Assembly (NCBI GenBank): GCA_964016885.1
Contig: OZ024764.1
Span: forward strand, 7,626,001-7,690,000
DNA: 64,000 nt
Source of the DNA: Eledone cirrhosa
Lineage: Eukaryota
Direction: 5' to 3'
The stretch's first letter is position 1; the number at the start of each line of letters is the position of its first letter. The position numbers and the translations under genes were made by a program. Below are positions 220-61,904 of this stretch, one piece after another. Below the pieces are notes generated by a model. It was not told the origin of the DNA and made no database searches. It saw only the letters and a list, made by a program, of their open reading frames with translations.

Positions 220-347
220 CATATATATATATTGTTATACTTTGGGAGGGTCATGTTGCCAATAAGAAACACACGTTTTCAGATAAAGAATCTTGCTAAA
301 CAAATTCAGAAACGAAATATATATATATACTTATGTGTATATATATA

Positions 348-1259
348 TGAGGTGTGTCAGAAAAGTTCCAGGACTGATGTCACAAAAGATTTATTTCGAA
401 CCCAAACTTCACACTAAGAGTTTTCTCCTTCAAAGTAATCCCCCTGGAGTATGTAACTGTAATCTTTGCTCTCTGCAGCGATCAAACTTTTTTCTTCATA
501 ATTTTATATACATGTCCTCTGTTTCAGGTTGTTAAGCAATGAGCACAGAGCAACGAACAAACTTTAAGTTTCTGGTACGGTTGAGGAAAACTCTGTCAGA
601 AGCACTGGGATTGCTGCAGCAAGTGTATGGAGATGAGACGATGTCACGCTCATGTGTTTTTGAGTGATGCAAGAGGTTTAAAGAAGGACGCGAGGACGTG
701 CAAGATGACCCCAGGAGCGGAAGGCCCTCAACAACCAGGACTGAGGTCAACGTTGAGCGCGTCAGGCAGATGGTGCGTAGCGATCGTCGGCTGACTGTTC
801 GACTGATGGCAAATGAGCTGGGCATGAATCGGGACAGCGTCTGGAAGATTCTCATATTTGGACATGCGGAAAGTCTACGCGAAGATGGTGCCAAAACTGC
901 TGAACGATGACCAGAAGGGTCGACGCATGCAAGTGTGCCAGGACATCCTCGAGCGTCTTGAAACCGAACCAGACTTGCTAGGGACAGTCATCACCGGTGA
1001 TGAGTCATGGATCTTCGAGTACGAACCGGAGGGGACCCGTTTTGAAGACGTGGACGACATCAAAAAGGCCATGACGACGGAACTGCAGAGGATCCCGGAA
1101 GAATCCTTCCAGCAGTGCATGCAAGCGTGGCAGAAATGGATGGAAAAGTGCATTAGGCTCCAGGGGGATTACTTTGAAGGAGAAAACTCTTAGTGTGAAG
1201 TTTGGGTTTGAAATAAATCTTTTGTGACATCAGTCCTGGAACTTTTCTGACCCTCCTCG
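348..1259 (+). mobile_element. Mariner (Tc1/mariner) DNA transposon, internally deleted and non-autonomous
   Basis: TA-flanked TIRs TGAGGTGTGTCAGAAAAGTTCCAGGACTG... / ...CAGTCCTGGAACTTTTCTGACCCTCCTCG (~100 bp); transposase remnants DDPRSGRPS, AKMVPKLL, VITGDESWIFEYEPE, CIRLQGDYFEG; stop at ~665 and frameshift at ~855. Confidence 0.93.
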
Positions 1260-1659
1260 TATATATATATATATACATATATATATATTGTTATAAATAG
1301 GGAGCAAAAGACGATTATTAGGAAGAAAAATATTTTTTTTTCCTTTTATTTTTTTCTCTTTTTTCTGGGTTAGAAAATTTTAAAACAAAATATTTTACTT
1401 TGTGTGAAGTGTTAAGGTATTAGTTAATTTATTTATTAATTAACAATGCCATTTATTTATTTATTTCTCCACATTTTAAAAATTATTATATATATATATA
1501 TATAATATAAATATATATATTATATATATTATATATATATATATAATATATATTATATATATATATATAATATATATTATATATATATATATAATATATA
1601 TTATATATATATATAGATATACATACATATATATAATATATATATATATAGATATACAT

Positions 1660-21240: not shown

Positions 21241-22379
21241 ATTTATATATATATGTATTTATATATATATATATATGTATTTATATATATATATATTTAT
21301 ATATATTTATATATATATATATAGTAATTGGGCAACCAAGGCAAATTTTGGTGCACTTTCATCAGATAAAATACAAAATATGTTTTATAAATGTTGACAT
21401 ACCCGCCAAAGAACAACCTTGACCGTTGGAGGTTCGCTGGATAGTGGAAAAATGTTATTGAGGGTGATTCGAAGTTATGTGTGGTGTATGCAAATTAATG
21501 TCCGAAAAAATTGAAAAAAACAACGGTTTATTTAAATTTTACTGTTGGACGAAGAGAGGGAGAGAGAGAAAAACCAATTTGTTGAGTGCTTTATATCAGT
21601 TATAAAACTTTTAAGTTTGTTGAATTCCAACAAATTAAATATAACCTTTGTATATATATATATATATATTTGCTCTAGGGTTCTTATATATTTGATATAT
21701 ATTTATCCTTATCGAGCCCTCTTTGGATTTTAGTCTTCAAATTTATTATTATTACTATATATATATATATATGTATATACATATATATAGTTATACACAT
21801 ATATATATATGTGGTTGGTGTTAGGAAGGGCATCCAACTGTAGAAAACCTGCCAGACAGTCCTATGCGAGCAAGACAATCACTCTTGCCCCAAGTGGGAC
21901 TACCCCCGTCCAAACCCATGCAAGCGTGGAACACGGACGTTAAACGTTGATGATGATGATGATGATGATGATATATATATATATATAACAAAGGAATTGT
22001 GGTAAGGAACCAAATGGACCATAACGCACCAGATAATGGTTTCTCATAATATAATTGTTTCTACTTAAGGCACAAGGCCAGTAATTACCCAGTGCATTAC
22101 TGGTACTTTATTTTATTGACCCCCCCCCCCGCAAGGATGAAAGGCAAAGTCAACCTCGGTGGGATTTGAACTCAGATCGTAAAGGGACGTAACTATGCTG
22201 GAAAGCATGGCGTCTGACCCTCTACCGATACTGCCAATTGCCAATCCACAATACCAGTCAAGTACTGAGGTCGATACTTCCTCAGTATTTCTTTCGCACT
22301 CTCTATCCTTCTCTGGAAGAAATCTGCTGTATTCTAGCCTGGAGATGAGTTGAGCTCCACCTGGTTTCAAAAATGCCCT

Positions 22380-22612
22380 AGAAACGTCGTATGTCACTAC
22401 AGAGCGCCTATGGTGCCGCTACGACTCCATCAGGAGTTACGGGATTATACAATAACTAAACTGAGGTCGGAGAACAGACGAAAGTGTAGATAACAAAAAG
22501 CGACACTGCTAAACGAAAAACGAAACTGAATTTGAACAGCGATGATATTAGAGTGATCTCCCCCTGTTTGCCTTTCAGCTCCGGAAGACAAGGAAGGTCA
22601 CTAGCCGAGCAC
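22380..22612 (+). promoter_or_regulatory. Putative promoter and non-coding first exon for the SDHAF1/TAMM41 unit
   Basis: CpG-containing segment, not repeated in this window, ending in strong donor CAC|GTAAGT (GT 22613-22614); nearest downstream acceptor leading into a CDS is at 29355. Confidence 0.45.
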
Positions 22613-22785
22613 GTAAGTTCACTCTGTTATTGTTTTAATCCGTGTTTATATATATATATATGAAAAAATGGGGAGAAGAATATATATATATATATTAACG
22701 TGTACATACGTGTATATATATGTACATAATATTTACGTAGTGAGCACCTATTCTTTCGCGATTGTAATCCCTTACTATATATATT

Positions 22786-25263: not shown

Positions 25264-26501
25264 TGTGTATAACAATTCAACAACAAAATAGGAGGATGTT
25301 TGGACGGGAGTTTTCCCACTTGAGGCAAGATTTGTTGTCTTGCTCGCATAGGACTGTCTGGCGGGTTTTCTACGGCTGGATGCCCTTCCTAACACCAACC
25401 ACGTTTACAGTGTGGGGCTGGGAGGTTTTTACCTTGTTACCTACACGGCCACATTACAGCGTGGACTATGTGTTTTTTTTGTCGTGACACCTACACGACC
25501 TCATTTGTTTCGGACTGGATGTTGTGGTACCAACATAACTTCACATTTAAGGGGGATGGGGTGGGGGTAGTGGGACGGGGGGTGTATTTTGTTAGAGGTG
25601 CCTACTGACTGTAGGTTTCGCTTTGTACTTAGGCAAGGCGGGTCTTCTGTATTACTGTGTAGCGCCAAAGATCTCGGTCCAGTGACATTGTCTTGGAGAG
25701 GTGTAAGTGTGTGAGGTCTGAATTTATCAAGTCGTCCCAGGTTTTTCTGGGTCTGCCTACTCCGTGGCTACCGTCTATTTTTATCGCCCTGCACTTTTTT
25801 ATACAGCTGTCGTCTTTCATGCGCATCACCTGACCATACCAACGTAGTCTTCTTTCGAGTAAACAACATCTGATCCCTCTTATTCCTAATTTCTCCCTTA
25901 GTTCATTTATGCTTTACCGTTCACATAAATATATATATATATATATTTATTAAAATAACAGATTAAAGTTTAAGCAAAGAATCGCTGCTTTCACCCTTAA
26001 CGAGATCTTCTGAAACTAAAAAAGTCAATCTGTGAATGCAGAAGTAAATATTCCAAAAAACGTTATATATATATATAACTATTTCCTTTCTATAGGACAT
26101 ACGTCCCATGGTCCGCAAATATAATGCCAACTACCAGCTCGTATGAGTTATGGCCGTTAAAGTGACCCACATGTGACCCGGCCGCTAGAGCAAGCAGGAA
26201 TATTACAGACTTGTTGATGGCTTGGCTGCTAAAAAAATAGGAGTAAGCAACAACAAATTTTTTCTCTACATAGATTGGAGAATGTATAAAAATGAGGTAA
26301 ATATCTCACTGAGTACTAAGTACCCATAGAGATATGTAGGGTGTCTATAATATAATTGTTGTTCTTTGGTACTAATTCGAGATACCAGAACTATAAAAAT
26401 TGATGATATTATAGACACCCTATATATCTCTATGGGTACTTAGTGAGATATTTACCTCATTTATATATAGGTATATATAGGGTATATATATGTGTATATA
26501 T

Positions 26502-27148
26502 ATAAGCAAGATGTATGGTAGGTCGTATGTGAATCGCGATGATCACGCCTGACCTACCAAATATGTGACGGTAGCTAGTTAAGCTCTATGCGTATAAGCA
26601 GAGCAGAAATATTAATGAAAAAGAACAAAGGAACTATTATGACATTATAACAAGTTTATTGCCGACAGCCGTTTCGTCCGACCCCATGGTGGGACTTATC
26701 AAGGCATATAACGTGATTGTAAGTTCATTATTTACATCAACGTATCACTTAAGACTAGCAGTTTGAAATTGTAGTATACATCAGCAGCTCCGCTTGTATA
26801 TTTGGGGTCTATATTCTAAGGGGGCTCTTTTATATAGACCCCAAATATACAAGCGGAGCTGCTGATGTATACCACAATTTCAAACTGCTAGTCTTAAGTG
26901 ATACGTTGATGTAAATAATGAACTTACAATCACATGTTATATGCCTTGAAAAGTCCCACCATGGGGTCGGACGAAACGGCAGTCGGCAATAAACTTGTTG
27001 TAATGTCATAATAGTTCCTTTGTTCTTTTTCATTAATATTTCTGCTCTGCTTATACGCATAGAGCTTAACTAGCTACCGTCACATATTTGGTAGGTCAGA
27101 CGTGATCATCGCGATTCACATACGACCTACCATACATCTTGCTTATAT
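26502..27148. mobile_element. ~310-bp-arm inverted duplication (Penelope-like pLTR) with U3-A8 variant hammerheads at 26660-26706(-) and 26942-26988(+)
   Basis: Arms nearly identical; TGCC-TTGA(T/A)AA-GTCC...GGAC-GAAAC-GGC(T/A)-GTC-GGCA. Confidence 0.82.
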
Positions 27149-28032
27149 TTATCATCATCATCATCGTTTAACGTCCGTGTTCCATGCTTGCATGGGTTTG
27201 GACGGGAGTTTTCCCACTTGAGGCAAGAGTGGTTGTCTTGCTCGCATAGGACTGTCTGGCGGGTTTTCTACAGTTGGATGCCCTTCCTAACACCAACCAC
27301 ATTTACAGTGTGGGGGCTGGGAGGTTTTTACCGTGTTGCCTACACGGCCACATTACAGCGTGGACTGTCTGGCAGGTTTTCTACAGCTGGATGCCCTTCC
27401 TAACACCAACCACATTTACAGTGTGGGACTGGGACGTTTTTACCGTGTTGCCTACACGGTCACATTACAGCGTGGACTGTGTGTTTTTTTTTCGTGACAC
27501 CTACACGATCTCATTTGTTTCGGCCTGGATTTTGTGGCACCAACATAACTTTACATTGAAAGGGGCGGTGTGGATGGGGTGGGGGTGGTGGGACGGGGGT
27601 GTATTTTGTTAGAGATGCCTACTGACTGTAGTAGGTTTTACTTTGTATTTAGGTAACGCGGGTCTTCTCTGTTACTAAGTACCGCCAAAGGTCTCGGTCC
27701 AGTGACATTGTCTTGGAGAGGTGTAAGTGTGTGAGGTCGGAATTTATCAGCTCGTCCCAGGTTTTTCTGGGTCTGCCTACTCCGTGGCTACCATCTATCT
27801 TTATTGCCCTGCACTTTGTTATACAGCTGTCGTCTTTCATATATTTATATATATAAAAATGAGGTAAATATCTCACTGAGTACTAAGTACCCATAGAGAT
27901 ATATAGGGTGTCTATAATATCATCAATTTTTATAGTTCTGGTATCTCGAATTAGTACCAAAGAACAACAATTATATTATAGACACCCTATATATCTCTAT
28001 GGGTACTTAGTATTCAGTGAGATATTTACCTC

Positions 28033-28088
<56 letters not shown>

Positions 28089-28848
28089 ATATTTGGGGAG
28101 GGTCATATTTGCGTAATATTGCCAGAATTAATAACCACTCACTGTTTGGTTGGTTTTCGCTTCTCGCTGTCTTTTATATCTGCGATCTAACTTACTCGGT
28201 CCTCAATGTTGCCATTGACTGACCGGCGGTCAAAAATAATACAGATACAATATAGACACAAATACAATATATAAACAGTTTTATAAATAATTTTGACGTA
28301 CTATAAACCGGCTTCTTACATAACGGTTGCTCAATATTTATGGTACGTCAAAATTATTTATAAAACATAATAGTTCCTTTGTGTCTATATTGTATCTGTA
28401 TTATTTTTGACCGCCGGTCAGTCAATGGCAACATTGAGGACCGAGTAAGTTAGATCGCAGATATAAAAGACAGCGAGAAGCGAAAACCAACCAAACAGTG
28501 AGTGTGTTCTGTTATTAATTCTGGCAATATTACGCAAATATGACCCTCCCCAAATATAACAATATCTGTTTCGACACACGATTTCATATAAAAAACCTCG
28601 CTAAACTATATATATATATATATATACGATATTAAACAAATGGAAACTATATTTATAAAACCATATTTATTTCATTATACATATTTCGGGGATACCATAT
28701 TAAAAATACGGCATGCCTTCTTCAGATAAAATACAATATATAAACAGTTTTATAAATAATTTTGACGTACCATAAATATTGAGCAACCGTTATGTAAGAA
28801 GCCGGTTTATGGTACGTCAAAATTATTTATAAAACTGTTTATATATTG

Positions 28849-28914
28849 TATTTTATCTGAAGAAGGCATGCCATATTTTTAATATGGTATCCCTGAAATA
28901 TGTATAATGAAATA
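28849..28914 (+). ncRNA. Minimal hammerhead ribozyme in palindrome 28626-28957 (mirror ~28668-28733 on -)
   Basis: TATTTTAT-CTGAAGA-AGG..CCT-GAAA-TATGTA-TA-ATGAAATA. Confidence 0.8.
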
Positions 28915-29430
28915 AATATGGTTTTATAAATATAGTTTCCATTTGTTTAATATCGTATATCTACTCCAAAACTTGTCGAGTGCTTTATATCAGTTATAAA
29001 ATATTTACTTGTTGTAACCCAACAATTTTAAATAAAACTTTTGCATATATAAGGATAGATCGACTTTCGTCAAATCGGACCGAGGAAACAATGTTTCCGT
29101 CGGTCTTTCCAGTTGCTAATACTATCTATCGGTCGCAACTCCAGGTAGAAGGAGCAACGTGAAATAAAGTGTCTTGCTCAAGGACATAACGCATCACCTG
29201 GTCCACGAATCGAACTCACAACCTCAAGATTGTGAATCCAATTCTCTAACCACTCAGCCACACGCCTTCACTATATATATATATATAAATGTCTTGCTTT
29301 GTTTAGTATAATTGTTCTCATATTTTTCCTTTTTCTTCTTTCGCATCCAATCCAGATATGTGACCCCCACTCAAACATACACACACCACACCACACCACA
29401 CCACACCCCAGGGAAGAAAGGGGTGGTGTG

Positions 29431-29814
29431 ATGGTGCACAGTAAGCTTCAGTTGGAGGTGATCCATTTATACCGGAATCTTCTTCGGGCCGCCCGTACCA
29501 AGCCGGGCTTCAAGTCGTATATCGTCAGCGAGTTCCGGCGAAACGTGGCCATCCCAAGACACAACATTCTCCGCATCGAGCACCTGCTGAGGAACGGCAG
29601 GAAGAAACTTGCTCTAATTGAGAGCCACCAGGTCCAGAGTCTGGGTGTCTTTCACAAAGACGACGACGACGACAACAACAACAGCAACATTACCCAGAAA
29701 TCTGACAGTCCTGGCACGCCCACCACCGCTGACAAGAGCAACACCATCACTTCAACACCAACCACTGCTGCTACTACTACTACTACTAACCACCACCAGA
29801 AAGACATCAAATAA
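29431..29814 (+). CDS. SDHAF1: Succinate dehydrogenase assembly factor 1 (LYR-motif protein), 127 aa with Thr/Asn-rich tail
   Basis: MVHSKLQLEVIHLYRNLLRAARTKPG....SEFRRN..IPR.NILRIEHLLRNGRKKL matches the SDHAF1/Sdh6 pattern; acceptor tttcgcatccaatccag at 29355. Confidence 0.92.
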   Translation: MVHSKLQLEVIHLYRNLLRAARTKPGFKSYIVSEFRRNVAIPRHNILRIEHLLRNGRKKLALIESHQVQSLGVFHKDDDDDNNNSNITQKSDSPGTPTTADKSNTITSTPTTAATTTTTNHHQKDIK

Positions 29815-31018
29815 CAGCTGATACTACTACTACTACAACAGCTACCACAGCTGATACTACCACTACTACTACTGCTACCACAGCTGATACTACCACTACT
29901 ACTACTACTACAACAGCTACCACTATCAGCAACCACCACTGATACTACCACCACTACTACTACAACAGCTACCACCACCACCACCAGCAGCAACCACCAC
30001 TGATACTACCACCGCTACTACTACAACAGCTACCACAGCTGATACTACCACTACTACTACTACTACAACAGCTACCACCACCACCACCACCAGCAACCAC
30101 CACTGATACTACCACCACTACTACTACTACAGCTACCACCACCATCACCACCAGCAACCACAGCTGATACTACCACCACTACCACTACCACTACTACCAC
30201 TACTACTACTACTACTACAATAGTTACCACCACCAGCAACCACAGCTGATACTACCACCACCGCCACCACTACTACTACTACTACAACAGCTACCACCAC
30301 CACCAGCAACCACAGCTCATACTACCACCACTACTACTACTACTACTACAACAGCTACCACCACCACCACCAGCAACCACAGCTCATACTACCACCACTA
30401 CTACTACTACTACTACAACAGCTACCACCACCACCAGCAACCACAGCTCATACTACCACCACTACTACTACAACAGCTACCACCACCACCACCAGCAACC
30501 ACAGCTGATACTACCACCACTACTACTACTACTACAACAGCCACCACCACCACCAGCAACCACAGCTGATACTACCACCACTACTACTACAACAGCTACC
30601 ACCACCACCACCAGCAACCACAGCTGATACTACCACCACCACTACTACTACTACTACAACAGCCACCACCACCACCAGCAACCACAGCTGATACTACCAC
30701 CACTACTACTACTACTACAACAGCCACCACCACCACCAGCAACCACAGCTCATACTACCACTACTACTACTACTACAACAGCTACCACCACCACCACCAG
30801 CAACCACAGCTCATACTACCACCACTACTACTACAACAGCTACCACCACCACCACCAGCAACCACAGCTGATACTACCACTACTACTACTACTACAGCAT
30901 AAACAACTACCACCACCACCACCACCACCACTACTACTACAACATAAACAACAACAACAACATTAGTTAAGATGACATCACTAAATATCACCACCACCAC
31001 CACCACCACCACCACCAG
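29815..31018. repeat. (ACT/ACC/ACA)n-based compound minisatellite between SDHAF1 and TAMM41
   Basis: ~60-bp degenerate units CAGCTGATACTACCACC...CAGCAACCA. Confidence 0.9.
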
Positions 31019-33053
31019 ACGGTTGATGTGGTGGTGGAGGTGGCGTCAGTGTGGCACATGTGCCATACACAGGTCAGTGCCGGCGTCACAACAGTGTCAC
31101 TCCGGTGTCACAACACCACCACTTCATACCCTTTCCTCTCCACCACAGCCTCTTCTGCGACACCCATGTGCCACCTTCCGCTCCTCCCGTGCCGCCAGCT
31201 CCTTCTGCGACACGGCTCTCCTGCCCCAGTACATGCCCACCTCTATACGTGCCATCTCCACCATCTTGGCTCCCCGCGTGCCACCGACCTCCTCGACAGA
31301 CGACACCAAAACCTGTGCAGGCTCCACTCGAGCCACCACCACAACTCAAGCCAGCTCCCCTTCTGGTACCTCCACTCAAGCAAGATCCACTCGACCCACC
31401 TCGACTCGACCCGCCTCTACTCAGGCAAGCTCCACTCAAGCCAGCTCCCCTTCTGGTACCTCCACTCAAGCAAGATCCACTCGACCCACCTCCACTCGAC
31501 CCGCCTCTACTCAGGCAAGCTCCACTCGAGCCAACTTCCCTTCCGCTACCTCCACTCGAGCTACCTCTACTCAAGCAAGCCCCACTCGAGCCAACTTCCC
31601 TTCCGCCAGCTCCACTCAATCTACTTCTACTCAAGCAAGCTCCACTCGAGCCAACTTCCCTTCCGCTACCTCCACTCGAGCTACCTCTACTCAAGCAAGC
31701 CCCACTCGAGCCAACTTCCCTTCCGCCAGCTCCACTCAATCTACTTCTACTCAAGCAAGCTCCACTCGAGCCAACTTCCCTTCCGCTACCTCCACTCGAG
31801 CTACCTCTACTCAAGCAAGCCCCACTCGAGCCAACTTCCCTTCCGCCAGCTCCACTCGATCTACTTCTACTCAAGCAAGCTCCACTCGAGCCAACTTCCC
31901 TTCCGCTACCTCCACTCGAGCCAGCTCTTCTCACTCTTCCCCCCCGTCTACCCCCACCGCTGCCAATACCACCAGCAGCACCACCACCACCATCGTACCT
32001 GTGTACACACCACCAGCCTCCTCAACCCTCACCCCGACATTAACGGACGACGACGCTGAAAGCAAGCTTCAGGAATTCTTCGACGAGGCGGTGGTGCCGG
32101 CTTTCCCCGAGGGGATCCAGTGTTCGTTTGCATACGGATCGGGAGCCTTCCAGCAGCAGGGGACGGACCACATCAGCAAAAACATGCTCGACTTCATCTT
32201 CGTGGTGGACGACCCCGTCGCATGGCATGCGGAGAACCTGCAGCGCAACCGAACCCACTACTCGGCTCTCAAGTTCCTCGGGACGCGTGCCATTGCTCAC
32301 ATCCAGCAGCAGTACGGAGCAGGCATCTACTTCAACACGCTGGTCCCGCTCGGCGCCCGGCTCATCAAGTACGGTGTGGTAAGCACCGACCACCTCGTCA
32401 CGGACCTCTTCGACTGGGAGACGTTGTACGTGAGCGGGAGGCTACACAAGCCGGTGTTGACCGTCAGAAAGCCAACGAACCCGGATCTCGTTGTCGCCCT
32501 CGACAACAACCTCCACAGCGCCGTTCACGCGGCCCTTATTCAGCTCCCGGACACGTTCACAGAGGAGGAACTCTATGTAAGCATCGCCAACCTCTCATAT
32601 TCTGGAGATTTCCGCATGTCAATTGGAGAGGACCGGAACAAAGTCTCGAACATAGTCGTTCCGAATGTTCCAAAGTTCCGTTCGATGTACTCCGACATCC
32701 TCGAGTCGGAGGAGCATGTGTTCTACAACGTAACCAGGCAAACGTACGAGCAGTACCCGAACCACATCTCGCAGTATCACCACCTGAACCTGCTGCCGAA
32801 AACTGTCCACATTAACTTGGTGGCGCTCTGTAACGCCAACCGAGCCATTCCTGACACGGAAGATGTACTGCGAAACCTCGCCAATGACCCACACTGCGGC
32901 ACCTACGTGGCGAAATGTATCTCGGACATTGTCAAAAGATCTAGCTACAGCCAGAGTGGAAAGACTATTCTTACGGCTGGATTCACGAAGTCTGTAAAAT
33001 ATAGTTCGAAAAAATTGTTAAAAATGTTAAAAAGTGTGAAAAATAAAAAATAA
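30972..33053 (+). CDS. TAMM41: Mitochondrial phosphatidate cytidylyltransferase Tam41, intronless, with long Ser/Thr repeat N-terminal extension (alternative start 31026)
   Basis: FAYGSGAFQQ, MLDFIFVVDDP..WH..NL..N..HYS, IKYGVVS..L..DL.DWETLYVSGRLHKPV, LSYSGDFRM..GED..KV.NIV; AATAAA cluster 33042-33074. Confidence 0.95.
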   Translation: MTSLNITTTTTTTTTRRLMWWWRWRQCGTCAIHRSVPASQQCHSGVTTPPLHTLSSPPQPLLRHPCATFRSSRAASSFCDTALLPQYMPTSIRAISTILAPRVPPTSSTDDTKTCAGSTRATTTTQASSPSGTSTQARSTRPTSTRPASTQASSTQASSPSGTSTQARSTRPTSTRPASTQASSTRANFPSATSTRATSTQASPTRANFPSASSTQSTSTQASSTRANFPSATSTRATSTQASPTRANFPSASSTQSTSTQASSTRANFPSATSTRATSTQASPTRANFPSASSTRSTSTQASSTRANFPSATSTRASSSHSSPPSTPTAANTTSSTTTTIVPVYTPPASSTLTPTLTDDDAESKLQEFFDEAVVPAFPEGIQCSFAYGSGAFQQQGTDHISKNMLDFIFVVDDPVAWHAENLQRNRTHYSALKFLGTRAIAHIQQQYGAGIYFNTLVPLGARLIKYGVVSTDHLVTDLFDWETLYVSGRLHKPVLTVRKPTNPDLVVALDNNLHSAVHAALIQLPDTFTEEELYVSIANLSYSGDFRMSIGEDRNKVSNIVVPNVPKFRSMYSDILESEEHVFYNVTRQTYEQYPNHISQYHHLNLLPKTVHINLVALCNANRAIPDTEDVLRNLANDPHCGTYVAKCISDIVKRSSYSQSGKTILTAGFTKSVKYSSKKLLKMLKSVKNKK

Positions 33054-33143
33054 AAAATAAAATATTAAAATAAAAAATTAAAATGTCAGAAATTAGAAGT
33101 ATTATTGTTTTTTGTTTTTAAATATATATATATCATCATTTAA

Positions 33144-34332
33144 CCCTTTAGCATTTACATTACTCTATATATACTATTGTATTTTAATGTTAAAGGCTTT
33201 ACCTCACATAATATCTCACATGACATTTACATTACTCTATATATACTATTGTATTGTCACAGTAAAGGCTTTACCTCCCATAATATCTCACATAACATTT
33301 ACATTACTCTATATATACTATTGTATTTTCACAGTAAAGGCTTTACCTCACATAATATCTCACATAACATTTACATTACTCTATATATACTATTGTATTT
33401 TCACAGTAAAGGCTTTACCTCCCATAATATCTCACATAACATTTACATTACTCTATATATACTATTGTATTGTCACAGTAAAGGCTTTACCTCCCATAAT
33501 ATCTCACATAACATTTACATTACTCTATATATACTATTGTATTTTCACAGTAAAGGCTTTACCTCACATAATATCTCACATAACATTTACATTACTCTAT
33601 ATATACTATTGTATTTTCACAGTAAAGGCTTTACCTCCCATAATATCTCACATAACATTTACATTACTCTATATATACTATTGTATTGTCACAGTAAAGG
33701 CTTTACCTCCCATAATATCTCACATAACATTTACATTACTCTATATATACTATTGTATTTTCACAGTAAAGGCTTTACCTCACATAATATCTCACATAAC
33801 ATTTACATTACTCTATATATACTATTGTATTTTCACAGTAAAGGCTTTACCTCCCATAATATCTCACATAACATTTACATTACTCTATATATACTATTGT
33901 ATTGTCACAGTAAAGGCTTTACCTCCCATAATATCTCACAAAACATTTACATTACTCTATATATACTATTGTATTTTCACAGTAAAGGCTTTACCTCACA
34001 TAATATCTCACATAACATTTACATTACTCTATATATACTATTGTATTTTCACAGTAGAGGCTTTACCTCACATAATATCTCACATAACATTTACATTACT
34101 CTATATATACTATTGTATTTTCACAGTAAAGGCTTTACCTCACATAACATTTACATTACTCTATATATACTATTGTATTTTCATGGTAAAGGCTTTACCT
34201 CACATAATATCAACTCTATGAGATTTTAATATTTATTTTGAGAACAATACCTTAATATCAGTATGAGTGGCCAGTTTGAACAGAAAGGTGAGAGAATTCT
34301 GGCCAGATATAGTCAGTTTAAATGCTAAAGGG
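33144..34332 (+). mobile_element. piggyBac-type MITE containing a 72-bp tandem array (~15 units)
   Basis: TTAA|CCCTTTAGCATTTA ... TAAATGCTAAAGGG|TTAA. Confidence 0.85.
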
Positions 34333-46000: not shown

Positions 46001-47445
46001 AAGACTTATGACCTGCATTTATGTTATTATGTAATATACTCTTGGATCACCAGAAATGAACTTTCCCGACATAAGGTATGACTCTCTTTGTTTATATTTT
46101 TATATGAATATTGATTGTTTGTTCCTGTATCTCATATCTGTTATTTTGCCTGAGAAAATATCTCTGTGTTCTTAAACAGTACACACATATATTTATTTTT
46201 TCATATCCAATTGAGTTCTTCGCACGAGGCTTGAATTCTTGTGAGATATTATGTGAGGTAAAGCCTTTACTGTGATAATACAATAGTATATATAGAGTAA
46301 TGTAAATGTTATGTGAGATATTATGTGCGGTAAAGCCTTTACTGTGAAAATACAATAGTATATATAGAGTAATGTAAATGTTATGTGAGATATTATGTGA
46401 GGTAAAGCCTTTACTGTGAAAATACAATAGTATATATAGAGTAATTTAAATGCTACAGTTGTAGCTGATGTTTGTGTTGCTAAGTCCACCTTGGGTATTT
46501 AATTATTTGGCAGTTGTTAAGGATTTTTTTATCTGGGTTTTTTTTTTTTTTTTTTTTTTTTTTTAGTCTTTGGCTGACAGAAATATATTTGAACAACAAC
46601 AACAACAACAACTACTAGGAGTACAACAATAACAATAACAGTAACTACTACTACTACTACTTCAACTGCACCAACAGGAATAACAACTACTACTACTACT
46701 ACTATTACAGCAACTGTACCAACGAGAATAACTACAACAGCAACTACTACCACTACCACTACTACAACAACAACAGCAACAACACCATCAAGATTGCCAC
46801 CAACTCTGTTACCACTACCACCACCACTGTCATCATCATCACAACCAACAGCACCCACCACCACCACCATTGTAGCAAACCACTAACCACTGCCACCACC
46901 ACCACCACCACCAAACCACTAACCACTACAACCAGCTACACCCTCACTACACCACCACCACCATACCACTACCACCACTACTACCACTAACTACTTCCAC
47001 CACCACCACACTACCACCACCATACCACCACCACCACACCACTAACACCACCATACCACTAACTACTTCCACCACTACCATACCACTACCACCACCACCA
47101 CACCACTACCACCACCACCACCACCACCATACCACTGCCACCACTACCATACCACCACTACTACCACCATACCACCACCACCACCATACCACTAACTACT
47201 GCCACCACTACCATACCACCACCACCATACCACCACTACTACCACCATACCACCACCACCACCACCACCATACCACTAACTACTGCCACCACTACCATAC
47301 CACCACCATACCACTAACTACTGCCACCACTACCATACCACTACCACCACCACCACCTACTGCCACCACTACCATACCACCACCACCTACTGCCACCACT
47401 ACCATACCACTACCACCACCACCACCACACCACCACCAACACAAC

Positions 47446-49302
47446 ATGTCAGTCAGACTTGAGTGCAGCCCCATGAAGGCCCTAATTGATGAAGAAATCT
47501 CCATTTGTGTTATGAACCTGGCACCCCGGGCCCTCGTCACGATGTGTGGGAGGGTAGAGGAGCCAGAGACACACAAAAGGTTTGGTTCCTTTGCACACTA
47601 CATAGCCTCGGAGAAGGGCAAGGTGGACTTATCCAAGGATCGGGCAGAGCCTAACAGAATGTATAAAGAGGCGGAGCCTAGCGGAACGTATAAAGAGGCG
47701 GAGCCTAGCAGAATGTATAAAGAGGCGGAGCCTAGCGGAACGTATAAAGAGGCGGAGCCTAGCGGAATGTATAAAGAGGCGGAGCATAGTGGGACGTTTA
47801 ATGGGGCGGGGCTTAGCGAAGAATACAGGGGGGAGGAGCCTAGCGGAATGTATAAAGAGGCGGAGCATAGTGGGACGTTTAATGGGGCGGGGCTTAGCGA
47901 AGACTACAGGGGGGAGGAGCCTAGCGGAATGTATGAAGAGGTGTATTCTAGCAGAACTTTGAAGTGCACGGAACCTAGCGGAACATACGAAGGGGTGGAG
48001 CCTATGGGACTCTTCTGGAGCATGGCTCCTGCCCCTGGGCAGAGGAGTGGTGCCAGGCTATTCCAGAGCGACTCCAGCGTGCCTCTTGCCTTTGATGTGC
48101 GGGTGTATGAGGGACACCTCTCCTGGGAGGATGTGTGGGCTGACAGGGGTGTAAGTAATGGTGGTGGGAGTGGTGAGTTTAAACTCCTGGCCAGGAAGAC
48201 AGTCCTCAGGTCATACAGGGCAGCTGACGTGAGTCGTGTTGTGGTCAATGTGGGTCGCATCCGTGGCACACTGTTTCTCCCTGGCGGGCTGAGGCACAGA
48301 GAGACACGGCCCGGTGTGATCGACATGTTCGGGTCACGAGGAGGACTGCTGGAGATGAGGGCAGCGCTGCTGGCGTCACACGGGTTCGTTACCATGGCGC
48401 TGGCCTACATGCGCTACAAGGACCTTCTCCAAAATAACGATTACTTCGATTACGAATATTTTGAGGAGGCGGCCCGCTGGCTCCAAGCCCGGCCTGAAGT
48501 TTCGCCTGGTGGGATCGGCATGATAGGGGTGTCACTCGGGGCACAGATTGCCCTCTACATGGGCTTTAACTGCCCCCTTGTGAAGGCTGTTGTAGCTATA
48601 TGTCACCCACCCTCATTTGGGGCAGGAGTTAAATTCAAAAAGGCTGGAGAATTAATCCCCACTCAGAGTTTTTATAACTTTTTGCCCCAGAAACACAGTT
48701 CTAACCTGATGACATTGTCTGGGGTATTTGAAACTGATAAGTATTTCTCCTTTCAAAACAGTCAGAGCCACACCCTCGAAGACAGTGGTCACACCCACAA
48801 CACAAGTGGCCATACCCACAACACAAGTGGCCATACCCACAACAATACTAGCCATACCCACATAAATATTAGCCACACCCACACAAACACAGGTCATGTC
48901 CACACCAATAACTGCCATGCCCACAATAACAACAACGACAACAATAAAACCAGTTCCTACAACAACAACAACAACAACCAGATCCATGCGCCACGGATCC
49001 TCTTCATCGTCGGCTCAGAAGACACAATGGCAAAGGTGTCGGACTATACGAAGTGGGTGGAAAGCCTGAGCAAGTGGGAGAAGTCAAGGGTAGAACTGGC
49101 TGTCTATAAGGGTGCAGGCCACCTCATAGAACCACCCTATGCACCACTCTGCAATGTAACCTTCCACAAGATGCTAGGAGGGCTCCTGTACTATGGTGGC
49201 ACAGCGAAGCCACATGCCATGGCACAGGAGCACTCGTGGCACAAAATGAGGGAGTTTCTGTGGAGCACGCTGGACAACAACTACGTAAGGTCTCAACTGT
49301 AA
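47446..49302 (+). CDS. Type I acyl-CoA thioesterase / BAAT-ACNAT family alpha/beta hydrolase, intronless CDS, predicted peroxisomal
   Basis: GRIRGTLFLP, PGVIDMFGSRGGLLEMRAALLASHGF, nucleophile GVSLG, GSED, GAGHLIEPPYAP; C-terminal SQL. Confidence 0.93.
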   Translation: MSVRLECSPMKALIDEEISICVMNLAPRALVTMCGRVEEPETHKRFGSFAHYIASEKGKVDLSKDRAEPNRMYKEAEPSGTYKEAEPSRMYKEAEPSGTYKEAEPSGMYKEAEHSGTFNGAGLSEEYRGEEPSGMYKEAEHSGTFNGAGLSEDYRGEEPSGMYEEVYSSRTLKCTEPSGTYEGVEPMGLFWSMAPAPGQRSGARLFQSDSSVPLAFDVRVYEGHLSWEDVWADRGVSNGGGSGEFKLLARKTVLRSYRAADVSRVVVNVGRIRGTLFLPGGLRHRETRPGVIDMFGSRGGLLEMRAALLASHGFVTMALAYMRYKDLLQNNDYFDYEYFEEAARWLQARPEVSPGGIGMIGVSLGAQIALYMGFNCPLVKAVVAICHPPSFGAGVKFKKAGELIPTQSFYNFLPQKHSSNLMTLSGVFETDKYFSFQNSQSHTLEDSGHTHNTSGHTHNTSGHTHNNTSHTHINISHTHTNTGHVHTNNCHAHNNNNDNNKTSSYNNNNNNQIHAPRILFIVGSEDTMAKVSDYTKWVESLSKWEKSRVELAVYKGAGHLIEPPYAPLCNVTFHKMLGGLLYYGGTAKPHAMAQEHSWHKMREFLWSTLDNNYVRSQL

Positions 49303-59375: not shown

Positions 59376-60836
59376 CTGGTAGGAGGAGGGTGTAAGGGGA
59401 AGAATGAGTAAGTTGAATGTAAATATAGCAAGGTAGACACAGGCTCTGCAACAGGAACAACAACTACAACACTACCACCACAACAACAGCTCCACCACTA
59501 ACACCACCACTACAACAGCTCCACCACCACTACCACAACAACACTACCACCACAACAACATCTCCACCACCACCACTACCACAACAACAGCTCCACCACT
59601 ACCACAACAGCACCACCACTACCATAACAACAGCTCCACCACCACCACAACAACAGCACCACCACCACCACTACCACAACAGCTCCACCACTACCACAAC
59701 AACAGCTCCACCACCACCACTACCACAACAACAGCTCCACCACCACCACCACAACAACAGCACCACCACTACCACAGCTCCACCACCACCACTACCACAA
59801 CAACAGCTCCACCACCACCATAACAACAGCACCACCACTACCACAACAACAGCTCCACCACCACCACCACAACACAACCACCACCACCACCACCACAACA
59901 TCTCCACCACCACCACTACCACAACAACAGCTCCACCACTAACACCACCACTACCACAATAACAGCTCCACCACCACCACAACACAACCACCACCACCAC
60001 CACCACCACATCTCCACCACCACCACTACCACAACAACAGCTCCACCACTAACACCACCACTACCACAATAACAGCTCCACCACCACCACCACCACTACA
60101 ACAACAGCACCACCACCACTACCACCACCAAAACAACACCACCACCACCACTACAACAACAGCACCACCACCACTACCACAACAACAGCTCCACCACCAC
60201 TACTACCACAATAACAGCTCCACCACTAACACCACTACTACCACAACAACAGCTCCACCACTACCACAACAACAGCACCACCACCACCACACCACTACTA
60301 CCACAACAGCTCCACCACCACCACCACAACAACAGCACCACCACTACCACTACCACAACAACAGCTCCACCACCACAACAGCTCCACCACAACAACAGCA
60401 CCACCACAACAGCTCCACCACCACAACAGCTCCACTACCACAACTCCACCACCACCAACAACAACAGTAACAACAACAACACCACCAACAACAGTAACAA
60501 CAACAACAGTAACAACAACAACACCACCAACAACAGTAACAACAACAACAGTAACAACAACAACACCAACAACAGTAACAACAACAACAGTAACAACAAC
60601 ACCACCAACAACAGTAACAACAACAACACCACTAGCACAACAACACCAACAACAGTAACAACAGTAACAACAACACCACCACCAACAACAGTAACAACAA
60701 CAACAGTAACAACAACAACACCACCAACAACAGTAACAACAACAACAGTAACAACAACAACAACAACACCAACAACAGTAACAGTAACAACAACAACAAC
60801 AACAACAGTAACAACAACAACAACAGCAACACATAC

Positions 60837-61707
60837 CTGCACAAATCTGGGTACTTCCTATCTCAATCATGTCCTTGTATTGCCCGAGGATTCCCTGGGG
60901 GTTCATGACATTCCTGACATAGAGCCTCATGAAGTTCTTAAAGCCCGTGCGGAAGACCATGTCGTACAGGAACAGGAACACGCTGTAGAGCCGGATGTAC
61001 CACGGAGCCCTCCTCAGCACCAGCCAATGGTAAGACTTGAAGATGTCCATCAAATAATGTTGTCGCTCCTCTGAATCCCCGTTGCCGTTCTCGTTGTCAA
61101 TGACGGCGGCGGCAGGGTGGTTGTCGTCGGCAACGGCGGGGGTGTCGGCGGCAGGGTGGTTGTCGTCGGCAACGGCGGGGGTGTCGTCGTCGGCAACGGC
61201 GGGGTTCTCGTCAAGGAGACCGTCACGCCGGCTGCCCTTGTCGTCGTGTCTGTTGTCGTCCAGGTGATCATCCCGTGAAGCGCTGCCGGGCGCTCCACCG
61301 GTTTCGGCGTCGGCGTCGGCAGAAAGTCCAGGCCGCCGCGACGACGGTGTCTTCTGTGGCGGCTGTGACAACAGCGATGACGGCGAACCAGATAGTGTTG
61401 ACAGCGACGGCGAAGACGCCGACGGTGTTGGCATTTGTCCATGCTGTCGCTGTTGCTGTTGCTGTCGCGACGATCCGAATGACGGTGACAATGATGACGA
61501 AGGTGTTGTTTGTGTCGGTGTTGTTGGTGGTGTTGTTGTTGTAGTAGTAGTAGTGGAGGAGGCACGAGAATGAGTATTAGATGTCGTAGCAGGAGAGCGA
61601 GGGGATCCTGAGGGTGAGGACACGCTCCGACACACATTGTGTCGCTCCACCGGTTCACCCTTCACGGTTTCCTGCCTCTTATATATTCGTTGTTGCGGAA
61701 ACTTTAG
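60837..61707 (-). CDS. Large internal exon of the same phosphatase, with low-complexity insertion (upstream exons not identified)
   Basis: ttctttccag|CTA...GCAG|gtatgt; 871 nt open, phase 0 to 1, ends GILGQYKDMIEIGSTQICA. Confidence 0.85.
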
Positions 61708-61904
61708 CTGGAAAGAATGAAAAAAAAATAACAACACATAAGATTGTGACATGGAGACAATTAGTAATATAATAGTTTCTTAAACAGGCACAAGGCCAGC
61801 AATTATCCCAGTACATTACTGGTACTTTATAATATAGTTTCTTATATAGGCACAAGGTCGGTAATTTTTGTGGGGAGGGGAAAGTTGATTAAATTGAACC
61901 CAGT

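Follow-up and report, generated by a model that had tools for sequence, protein, structure and literature searches.

A 64,000-nt stretch of the Eledone cirrhosa genome (hereafter the window; GenBank assembly GCA_964016885.1, contig OZ024764.1, positions 7,626,001 to 7,690,000 of the forward strand) carries two mitochondrial genes, SDHAF1 and TAMM41, in tandem on the + strand (Table 1). A preliminary description of this DNA, drawn from its letters, had proposed that the two intact, intronless genes, about 1.16 kb apart, share one mRNA. Both open reading frames (ORFs) were confirmed as intact and intronless, each encodes its expected Pfam domain and gives a single match in the 3.0-Gb genome, and the distance between them is 1157 nt. 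The product of the smaller ORF matches Complex1_LYR (PF05347) at E 1.9e-9, with a score of 37.8 bits against a Pfam cut-off of 24.8, and is 71% identical to an LYR protein of Octopus bimaculoides. Its nearest named clusters in the ESM Atlas, where names are automatic, are SDHAF1 at 0.91-0.92, with LYRM4 at 0.85. The protein consists of a conserved core of about 77 aa and a microsatellite-derived tail, and its start codon has the strong context that had been ascribed to it, with G at −3 and +4. Comparison of SDHAF1 with PDB sequences gave one match, at chance level; homologue searches with it each gave a single protein, a limit set by their word index. Members of the SDHAF1 family function in SDHB maturation and complex II assembly.

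The larger ORF encodes a TAMM41 protein whose Tam41_Mmp37 domain is complete (aa 373-684, E 2.6e-106, 356 bits, profile positions 3-322 of 322) and which groups with Octopus TAMM41 at a support of 1.00 in a FastTree phylogeny of 116 sequences. The predicted N-terminus, MTSLNI from the start at 30972, matches the MSSLNI of 396-aa Octopus TAMM41 proteins. The reading frame is open throughout 30972-32060, and coding repeats, each with a period divisible by three, make the protein longer than its Octopus counterpart. Tam41 is a mitochondrial cytidine diphosphate diacylglycerol synthase (PMC4736822). From the known roles of both families we infer that the pairing may couple complex II assembly to cardiolipin synthesis, as the preliminary description had suggested. 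The N-terminal extension (30972-32060, +) adds about 300 aa relative to Octopus, is 44% Thr and Ser, and lies between a presumed presequence and the catalytic domain. It is overlapped by a second open frame (31058-32059, +; 333 aa, rich in His, Ser and Leu) that has no Pfam match and that we take as a by-product of stop-poor repeats.

Most of what had been reported about the signals around the two genes was confirmed. The tract before the AG at 29354-29355 supports the splice acceptor placed there, being 56% T, whereas each of the 55 AGs in 29815-31060 is preceded by at most 25% T, in agreement with the reported lack of a polypyrimidine acceptor between the genes. In a scan of 29300-33400, AATAAA was found only at 33042, 33049, 33056 and 33069, which places the first canonical hexamer at the TAMM41 stop as described. 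The two CATAAA variants said to lie near 30898 and 30943 were both located at these positions, and what follows them is CAA/CAC repeat, not GU-rich sequence. The spacer is as G-poor as had been stated, and a minisatellite of 17 copies of a 61-bp unit fills nearly all of it. Its predicted fold, −74 kcal/mol over 986 nt, is more stable than that of its own shuffles (z −3.7) and low in absolute terms.

The preliminary description had further noted that no ATG occurs between the SDHAF1 start and 30972, and had read this depletion as a signature of leaky scanning or reinitiation. The observation holds, as 29434-30971 contains no ATG in any frame and the ATG-free run amounts to 1541 nt. Its interpretation does not. 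When SDHAF1 was recoded with local codon use, 41-45% of the recoded sequences were internally ATG-free, against 1.5% under uniform codons, 1.5% in dinucleotide shuffles and 0.3% in shuffles of the whole stretch, three null models that ignore codon bias and repeat structure. Other + strand repeats in the window have ATG-free runs of 1452, 1249 and 1148 nt. Because the minisatellite is G-poor and because of local codon use, the octopod run is no more than local chance would give; the absence of ATG from the spacer is then permissive and not a selected signature.

Table 1. Positions in the window of the features of the SDHAF1-TAMM41 locus.
Feature	Position	Strand	Basis
Candidate non-coding upstream exon with GTAAGT donor at 22613 (weak candidate)	22460..22618	+	Sequence only
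Predicted 3′ splice site (pyrimidine tract plus AG) at the head of the large exon	29316..29355	+	56% T and 83% pyrimidine in −40..−5
Start-stop upstream ORF (ATG TGA) at the beginning of the predicted exon, 73 nt from the SDHAF1 start	29358..29363	+	Sequence scan
SDHAF1 (LYR protein, 127 aa)	29431..29814	+	Pfam domain, Atlas clusters, Octopus match, start context
Spacer of 1157 nt between the cistrons (6% G, no ATG), for the most part 61-bp CAC/CTA minisatellite	29815..30971	+	Sequence and repeat scan
TAMM41, 693 aa, intronless, with Thr/Ser-rich N-terminal extension; catalytic domain at about 32088-33023	30972..33053	+	Pfam, Octopus N-terminus match
Coding tandem repeats in the TAMM41 extension, periods of 15-120 nt, all multiples of three	31344..31933	+	Repeat scan
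Cluster of AATAAA/ATTAAA, predicted to be the only poly(A) signal of the unit	33042..33082	+	Hexamer scan

The same gene order is found in other animals. A scan of metagenome contigs confirmed 181 TAMM41 loci, of which the best 80 were retained. In nine of these 80 an intact SDHAF1 immediately precedes TAMM41 on its strand; 63 of the 80 have 330 nt or more of upstream flank, and all nine are among them. In addition, 3 gene models among the 120 protein matches listed (551 passed E 1e-60) hold both Pfam domains in one chain with the LYR domain N-terminal, namely P0022, P0036 and P0106 (Potamilus, Pomacea and P0106). No further fused chain was present among 336 proteins, and P0022 used as a query against 50%-identity representatives returned TAMM41 matches. 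In the TAMM41 tree, L031 and L034 nest among Mya, Mercenaria and Mactra, while L008, L009, L018, L037, L062 and P0106 fall, with mixed support, in a mainly annelid group, and L059 and L064, the two rotifer-clade loci, form a distant pair. The pair is thus present in bivalves and a snail and likely in annelids and rotifers, and the two-gene mRNA is likely old. The split between rotifers, molluscs and annelids is Cambrian or older, and the human SDHAF1 and TAMM41 genes lie on different chromosomes. Our literature search, in which subscription journals were thinly covered and the supplements on algal LYR bicistrons fell outside the search, found no description of the pair, and such an mRNA has apparently not been described before. 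PMC7050145, the one paper found to name both SDHAF1 and TAMM41, draws no link between them in the portion available.

The arrangement is far more compact in these relatives than in the octopod. Stop-to-start spacers measure 57, 44, 58, 84, 45, 12 (L037) and 33 nt in seven of them, and in the two rotifer-clade loci the stop overlaps the start (ATGA in L059, −4; TAATG in L064, −1). No poly(A) hexamer occurs in the spacer of any of the nine relatives and no spacer AG scores above 1.5; three spacers contain no AG whatever and two loci have no spacer. An acceptor scoring above 3 was found 10-119 nt before the SDHAF1 ATG in six of the nine, and AATAAA or ATTAAA lies within 400 nt of the TAMM41 stop in five of the six that have enough flank. 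SDHAF1 is under purifying selection, the proportion of nonsynonymous differences (pN 0.15-0.26) being below that of synonymous differences (pS 0.39-0.87) in 4/4 pairs. Both ORFs are therefore conserved and constrained as coding sequences, SDHAF1 by pN/pS and TAMM41 by its intactness.

Evidence at the RNA level comes from L059. This contig opens with the final 11 nt of the rotifer spliced leader (PMC3795323, Table 1), joined at the point that corresponds to a pyrimidine tract and AAG in L064, its genomic relative. The TAMM41 gene of L064 contains a 51-nt GT-AG intron that is missing from L059. In close cluster mates of L059, contigs of 16662, 2690 and 4977 bp, TAMM41 occurs only as C-terminal pieces that start after the L064 intron site; the SDHAF1 cluster of L059 shows the same three contig sizes, and the nearest named ESM Atlas clusters of the small L059 ORF are SDHAF1, as for that of the octopod. 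Because it combines a spliced leader at its 5′ end, a missing intron and both ORFs, L059 is best read as a mature rotifer mRNA, trans-spliced and cis-spliced. As for the octopod itself, four sequencing runs, none of them recorded as RNA, contain TAMM41: run X3 comprises 88 M letters at a depth of 47, and the other three about 1400 M letters at a depth of 7, values which suggest that X3 is a transcriptome. X3 and the three large runs give the same 359-nt contig, which reaches 61 letters to the left of 31053 and shows neither joint nor loose end. The read comparison covered 30856-31343, of which 30856-31052 was skipped as repeat, so that these 61 letters were not compared and SDHAF1 lay outside the stretch. 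The contig is a hint against splicing at 31019, where the preliminary description had allowed for an alternative acceptor, and a weak one because of the skipped repeat.

Taken together, these comparisons make it likely that octopod SDHAF1 and TAMM41 lie on a single transcript, despite the growth of the spacer to 1157 nt by minisatellite expansion, and TAMM41 is probably translated mainly from that bicistronic mRNA. The earlier one-mRNA reading is thus probably right, on the tight tandem order in spiralians, the stop/start overlaps and L059, and the ATG argument put forward with it falls away. We propose that the two genes would together make up a single large exon, in a bicistronic mRNA that goes back to early spiralians, and that ribosomes would finish SDHAF1, resume scanning and reinitiate at TAMM41. 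In the octopod, the long, ATG-free and weakly folded spacer could allow a 40S subunit to continue scanning after termination and to acquire a new initiator tRNA, with the expected output of abundant SDHAF1 and scarce TAMM41. We regard this full proposal, a bicistronic mRNA whose TAMM41 is made by reinitiation after SDHAF1, as evenly balanced between right and wrong. The nine relatives have 2-9 ATGs each between the two starts, their out-of-frame ATGs number 15 against 15.2 expected, so that no AUG depletion is apparent, and SDHAF1 has a purine at −3 in eight of the ten pair loci, a weak context (T at −3) being confined to L059 and L064. Because of these intervening ATGs, the lack of depletion, the purine at −3 and the UAAUG/AUGA overlaps, a mark of reinitiation following long ORFs (PMC10275272), we prefer reinitiation to leaky scanning; reinitiation after SDHAF1 is indifferent to ATGs inside SDHAF1 and hence compatible with them. 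A broader version, in which the mini-operon would be older than the rotifer/annelid/mollusc split, reinitiation would follow a complete functional ORF on a cellular mRNA and operate over distances of −4 to 1157 nt, and a short upstream ORF (uORF) would shift output to TAMM41 when mitochondrial stress leads to eIF2 phosphorylation, is speculative and, taken whole, doubtful.

Several observations weigh against the bicistronic reading and against reinitiation. Of the informative loci among the best 80 of 181, the other 54 have no SDHAF1 upstream of TAMM41; 23 belong to an annelid-side clade of 25 loci, which we take to be clitellate, one is L005, next to Paralvinella in the tree, and 30 fall outside the group of molluscs and annelids. 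The pair therefore appears to have been lost more than once or to be patchy in distribution, and its linkage is dispensable because it is absent from the 25-locus clade and from L005. At the octopod locus, a crude short-window acceptor score separates 29355 only weakly from the AGs of the spacer region (1.5 versus 0.9), and none of the octopod reads and contigs examined, in a comparison that left SDHAF1 out, links the two genes. L059, being an assembled contig and not a single molecule, could combine isoforms that overlap. In L008 a borderline CAG stands 2 nt ahead of the TAMM41 ATG, and acceptor-like AGs lie inside SDHAF1 in five of the nine relatives. The TURBS-like motif TGGGA (TURBS, termination upstream ribosome-binding site) lies within 110 nt before the SDHAF1 stop in only one of the ten loci and is not conserved. 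Reinitiation is most efficient after short ORFs (PMC11892635), and SDHAF1 has 77-127 codons. Coupled reinitiation in viruses drops beyond about 30 nt (PMC10275272); stop and start overlap or lie within roughly that distance in L059, L064 and L037, but are 33-84 nt apart in six loci and 1157 nt apart in the octopod, a spacer that the coupled type would leave unexplained.

In L005, an acceptor lies 107 nt before TAMM41, as though this exon had lost SDHAF1. Four other loci on short contigs, L042, L048, L052 and L066, share a similar first 45 nt closing in AAGAG just before the TAMM41 start, which is spliced-leader-like, and TAMM41 looks monocistronic in this clade.

If the bicistronic mRNA is accepted, ribosomes could instead bypass the SDHAF1 start, by leaky scanning or after a tiny uORF in the manner of ATF4 or of ORF35/36 of KSHV (the herpesvirus associated with Kaposi's sarcoma), and the SDHAF1/TAMM41 ratio could then fall under eIF2 control. 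The octopod ATG-TGA at 29358 is suitably placed, short uORFs stand directly before SDHAF1 in seven of the ten pair loci, four of them overlapping the SDHAF1 start, the octopod lacks any ATG between the two starts, both rotifer-clade loci have a weak SDHAF1 context, and precedents have been reported (PMC3561293, PMC9681215, PMC11892635). The uORF enrichment is, however, only suggestive, as 4.7 loci are expected (P ~0.08), the relatives keep their intervening ATGs without depletion, and most SDHAF1 starts have a purine at −3; we consider bypass unlikely, though it is the chief rival to reinitiation. Alternatively, one promoter could give two mRNAs: SDHAF1 would come from a long RNA whose TAMM41 part stays untranslated, and TAMM41 from a shorter isoform that arises through a second acceptor, through transcription starting internally or, in rotifers, through trans-splicing at an internal site. 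Such an arrangement is common among Drosophila dicistronic loci (PMC4528330), and CG33331, a potential fly Tam41 orthologue, shares its promoter and 5′ untranslated region with CG33332 according to supplements of the same study; one TAMM41 protein of Octopus sinensis is listed under two accessions, and the acceptor-like AGs inside SDHAF1 and the borderline one in the L008 spacer would also fit. Against it, no acceptor is conserved among loci whose spacers may lack any AG or be absent altogether, and the site suggested near 31019 finds no support from the T-poor AGs of the octopod spacer region, from the reads, weak as they are on this point, or from the start at 30972, which lies upstream of 31019 and matches the Octopus N-terminus. 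A two-mRNA arrangement is accordingly unlikely.

Two further explanations have far less in their favour. The octopod genes could have become independent, SDHAF1 ending at one of the CATAAA variants (30898 or 30943) and TAMM41 having a promoter within the spacer; the growth of the spacer, the presence of two such variants and the break-up of the pair in other lineages are consistent with this, but the spacer is almost pure minisatellite, the variants run into CAA/CAC repeat, and no canonical hexamer precedes 33042, which makes independence very improbable. A spliced SDHAF1-TAMM41 fusion protein, as depicted by P0022, P0036 and P0106, is barely credible: a stop follows SDHAF1 in all ten DNA loci, its frame relative to TAMM41 varies, the junctions differ among the three models, and the same Pomacea contig also carries a 442-aa model without fusion. 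Because of this unfused model, we take the fused ones as probable gene-caller joins, which nevertheless show the adjacency and order of the two genes. A single SDHAF1-TAMM41 mRNA remains the reading we prefer.

L037 offers a further case of a uORF before SDHAF1 (85-100), with two codons and a TAA that overlaps the SDHAF1 ATG (TAATG). Its contig starts 97 nt before SDHAF1 and ends 11 nt past the TAMM41 stop, and may be a second transcript contig.

Upstream of the octopod pair, the candidate non-coding exon of Table 1 follows a repeat family at 22250-22460; 22460-22630 matched only itself among 41 matches, and the donor at 22613 is one of 18 GT[AG]AGT sites upstream of the acceptor. The presumed intron contains several long palindromic elements in 26300-29000, for instance at about 27860-28040 and 28150-28520. 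Elsewhere in the window, a lone intronless ORF at 47446-49302 (+) encodes a 618-aa acyl-CoA thioesterase/BAAT-like (ACOT-like) protein with internal repeat expansions (region 46567-49302), and is preceded by a long T tract and AG, a strong predicted acceptor, and then by about 880 nt of ATG-free CAC/CTA repeat, similar in kind to the SDHAF1-TAMM41 spacer. Exonic repeat expansion seems common in this region. At 60836-61752 (−), a GC-rich, coding-looking stretch running into CAA/CAC repeat has no Pfam match and is probably an exon of another gene. A broken transposase remnant, presumably mariner-like, lies between short inverted ends at 340-1260 (+).

If the proposal is correct, SDHAF1-TAMM41 adds one more conserved bicistron to the short animal list, and extends to spiralians the link between LYR proteins and bicistrons known from MIEF1 and green algae. 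It would also explain annotation errors, as at least three gene models join the two proteins and SDHAF1 may have gone unannotated elsewhere. The loci form a natural series of stop-to-start distances on otherwise homologous mRNAs, beginning with overlap in rotifers, continuing with 12-84 nt and ending at 1157 nt in the octopod. The distance needs of reinitiation after long ORFs on eukaryotic mRNAs have been called unknown (PMC10275272), and the series therefore makes such requirements testable.

Comparison with known systems places the pair among several bicistrons. The human MIEF1 mRNA likewise carries a PF05347 LYR-microprotein ORF upstream of a long mitochondrial ORF (PMC4383229); it differs in LYR subfamily and partner, its translation has been shown whereas that of SDHAF1-TAMM41 is predicted, and the octopod pair seemingly occupies one exon and the pair spans several phyla. 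Green-algal LYR bicistrons such as TOM22-SDHAF3 (PMC7896298, PMC11892635) also involve LYR mitochondrial assembly factors, a short first ORF and a short spacer, but SDHAF3 is the downstream ORF there (PMC7896298), unlike SDHAF1 here, and the algal loci show weak first-ORF contexts, AUG depletion and leaky scanning (PMC11892635), while in the SDHAF1-TAMM41 relatives depletion is absent and position −3 mostly holds a purine. Drosophila sloth1-sloth2 is similarly a conserved mitochondrial bicistron with a stop-start gap of a few nucleotides that is split in some lineages; it encodes two related small proteins of one complex and uses leaky scanning, as was shown, in contrast to the unrelated proteins of different pathways found here (PMC9681215). 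Calicivirus VP2 and influenza B BM2 use UAAUG/AUGA overlaps like those of L064 and L059, although viral termination-reinitiation needs a TURBS and less than about 30 nt (PMC10275272), unlike the pair loci with their single TGGGA and wider spacers. A viral TURBS mechanism was considered for the octopod and ruled against by the 1157-nt distance and the unconserved TGGGA. In KSHV ORF35-ORF36, short uORFs before a functional first ORF permit translation of the second (PMC3561293), and the uORFs here are likewise placed; that system is viral, and the role of the uORFs here, whose excess is not significant, is putative.

Flies offer a partial parallel. We take CG34229 to be the fly SDHAF1. It is absent from the 12 supplement files of PMC4528330 searched, file 1 lying outside the search. 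The potential fly Tam41 orthologue likewise shares its transcription unit, there with a different gene (CG33331/CG33332, 88D6; PMC4528330, File S2). We conclude that SDHAF1-TAMM41 belongs with the known LYR-microprotein bicistrons, as a real conserved pair on a probable bicistronic mRNA.

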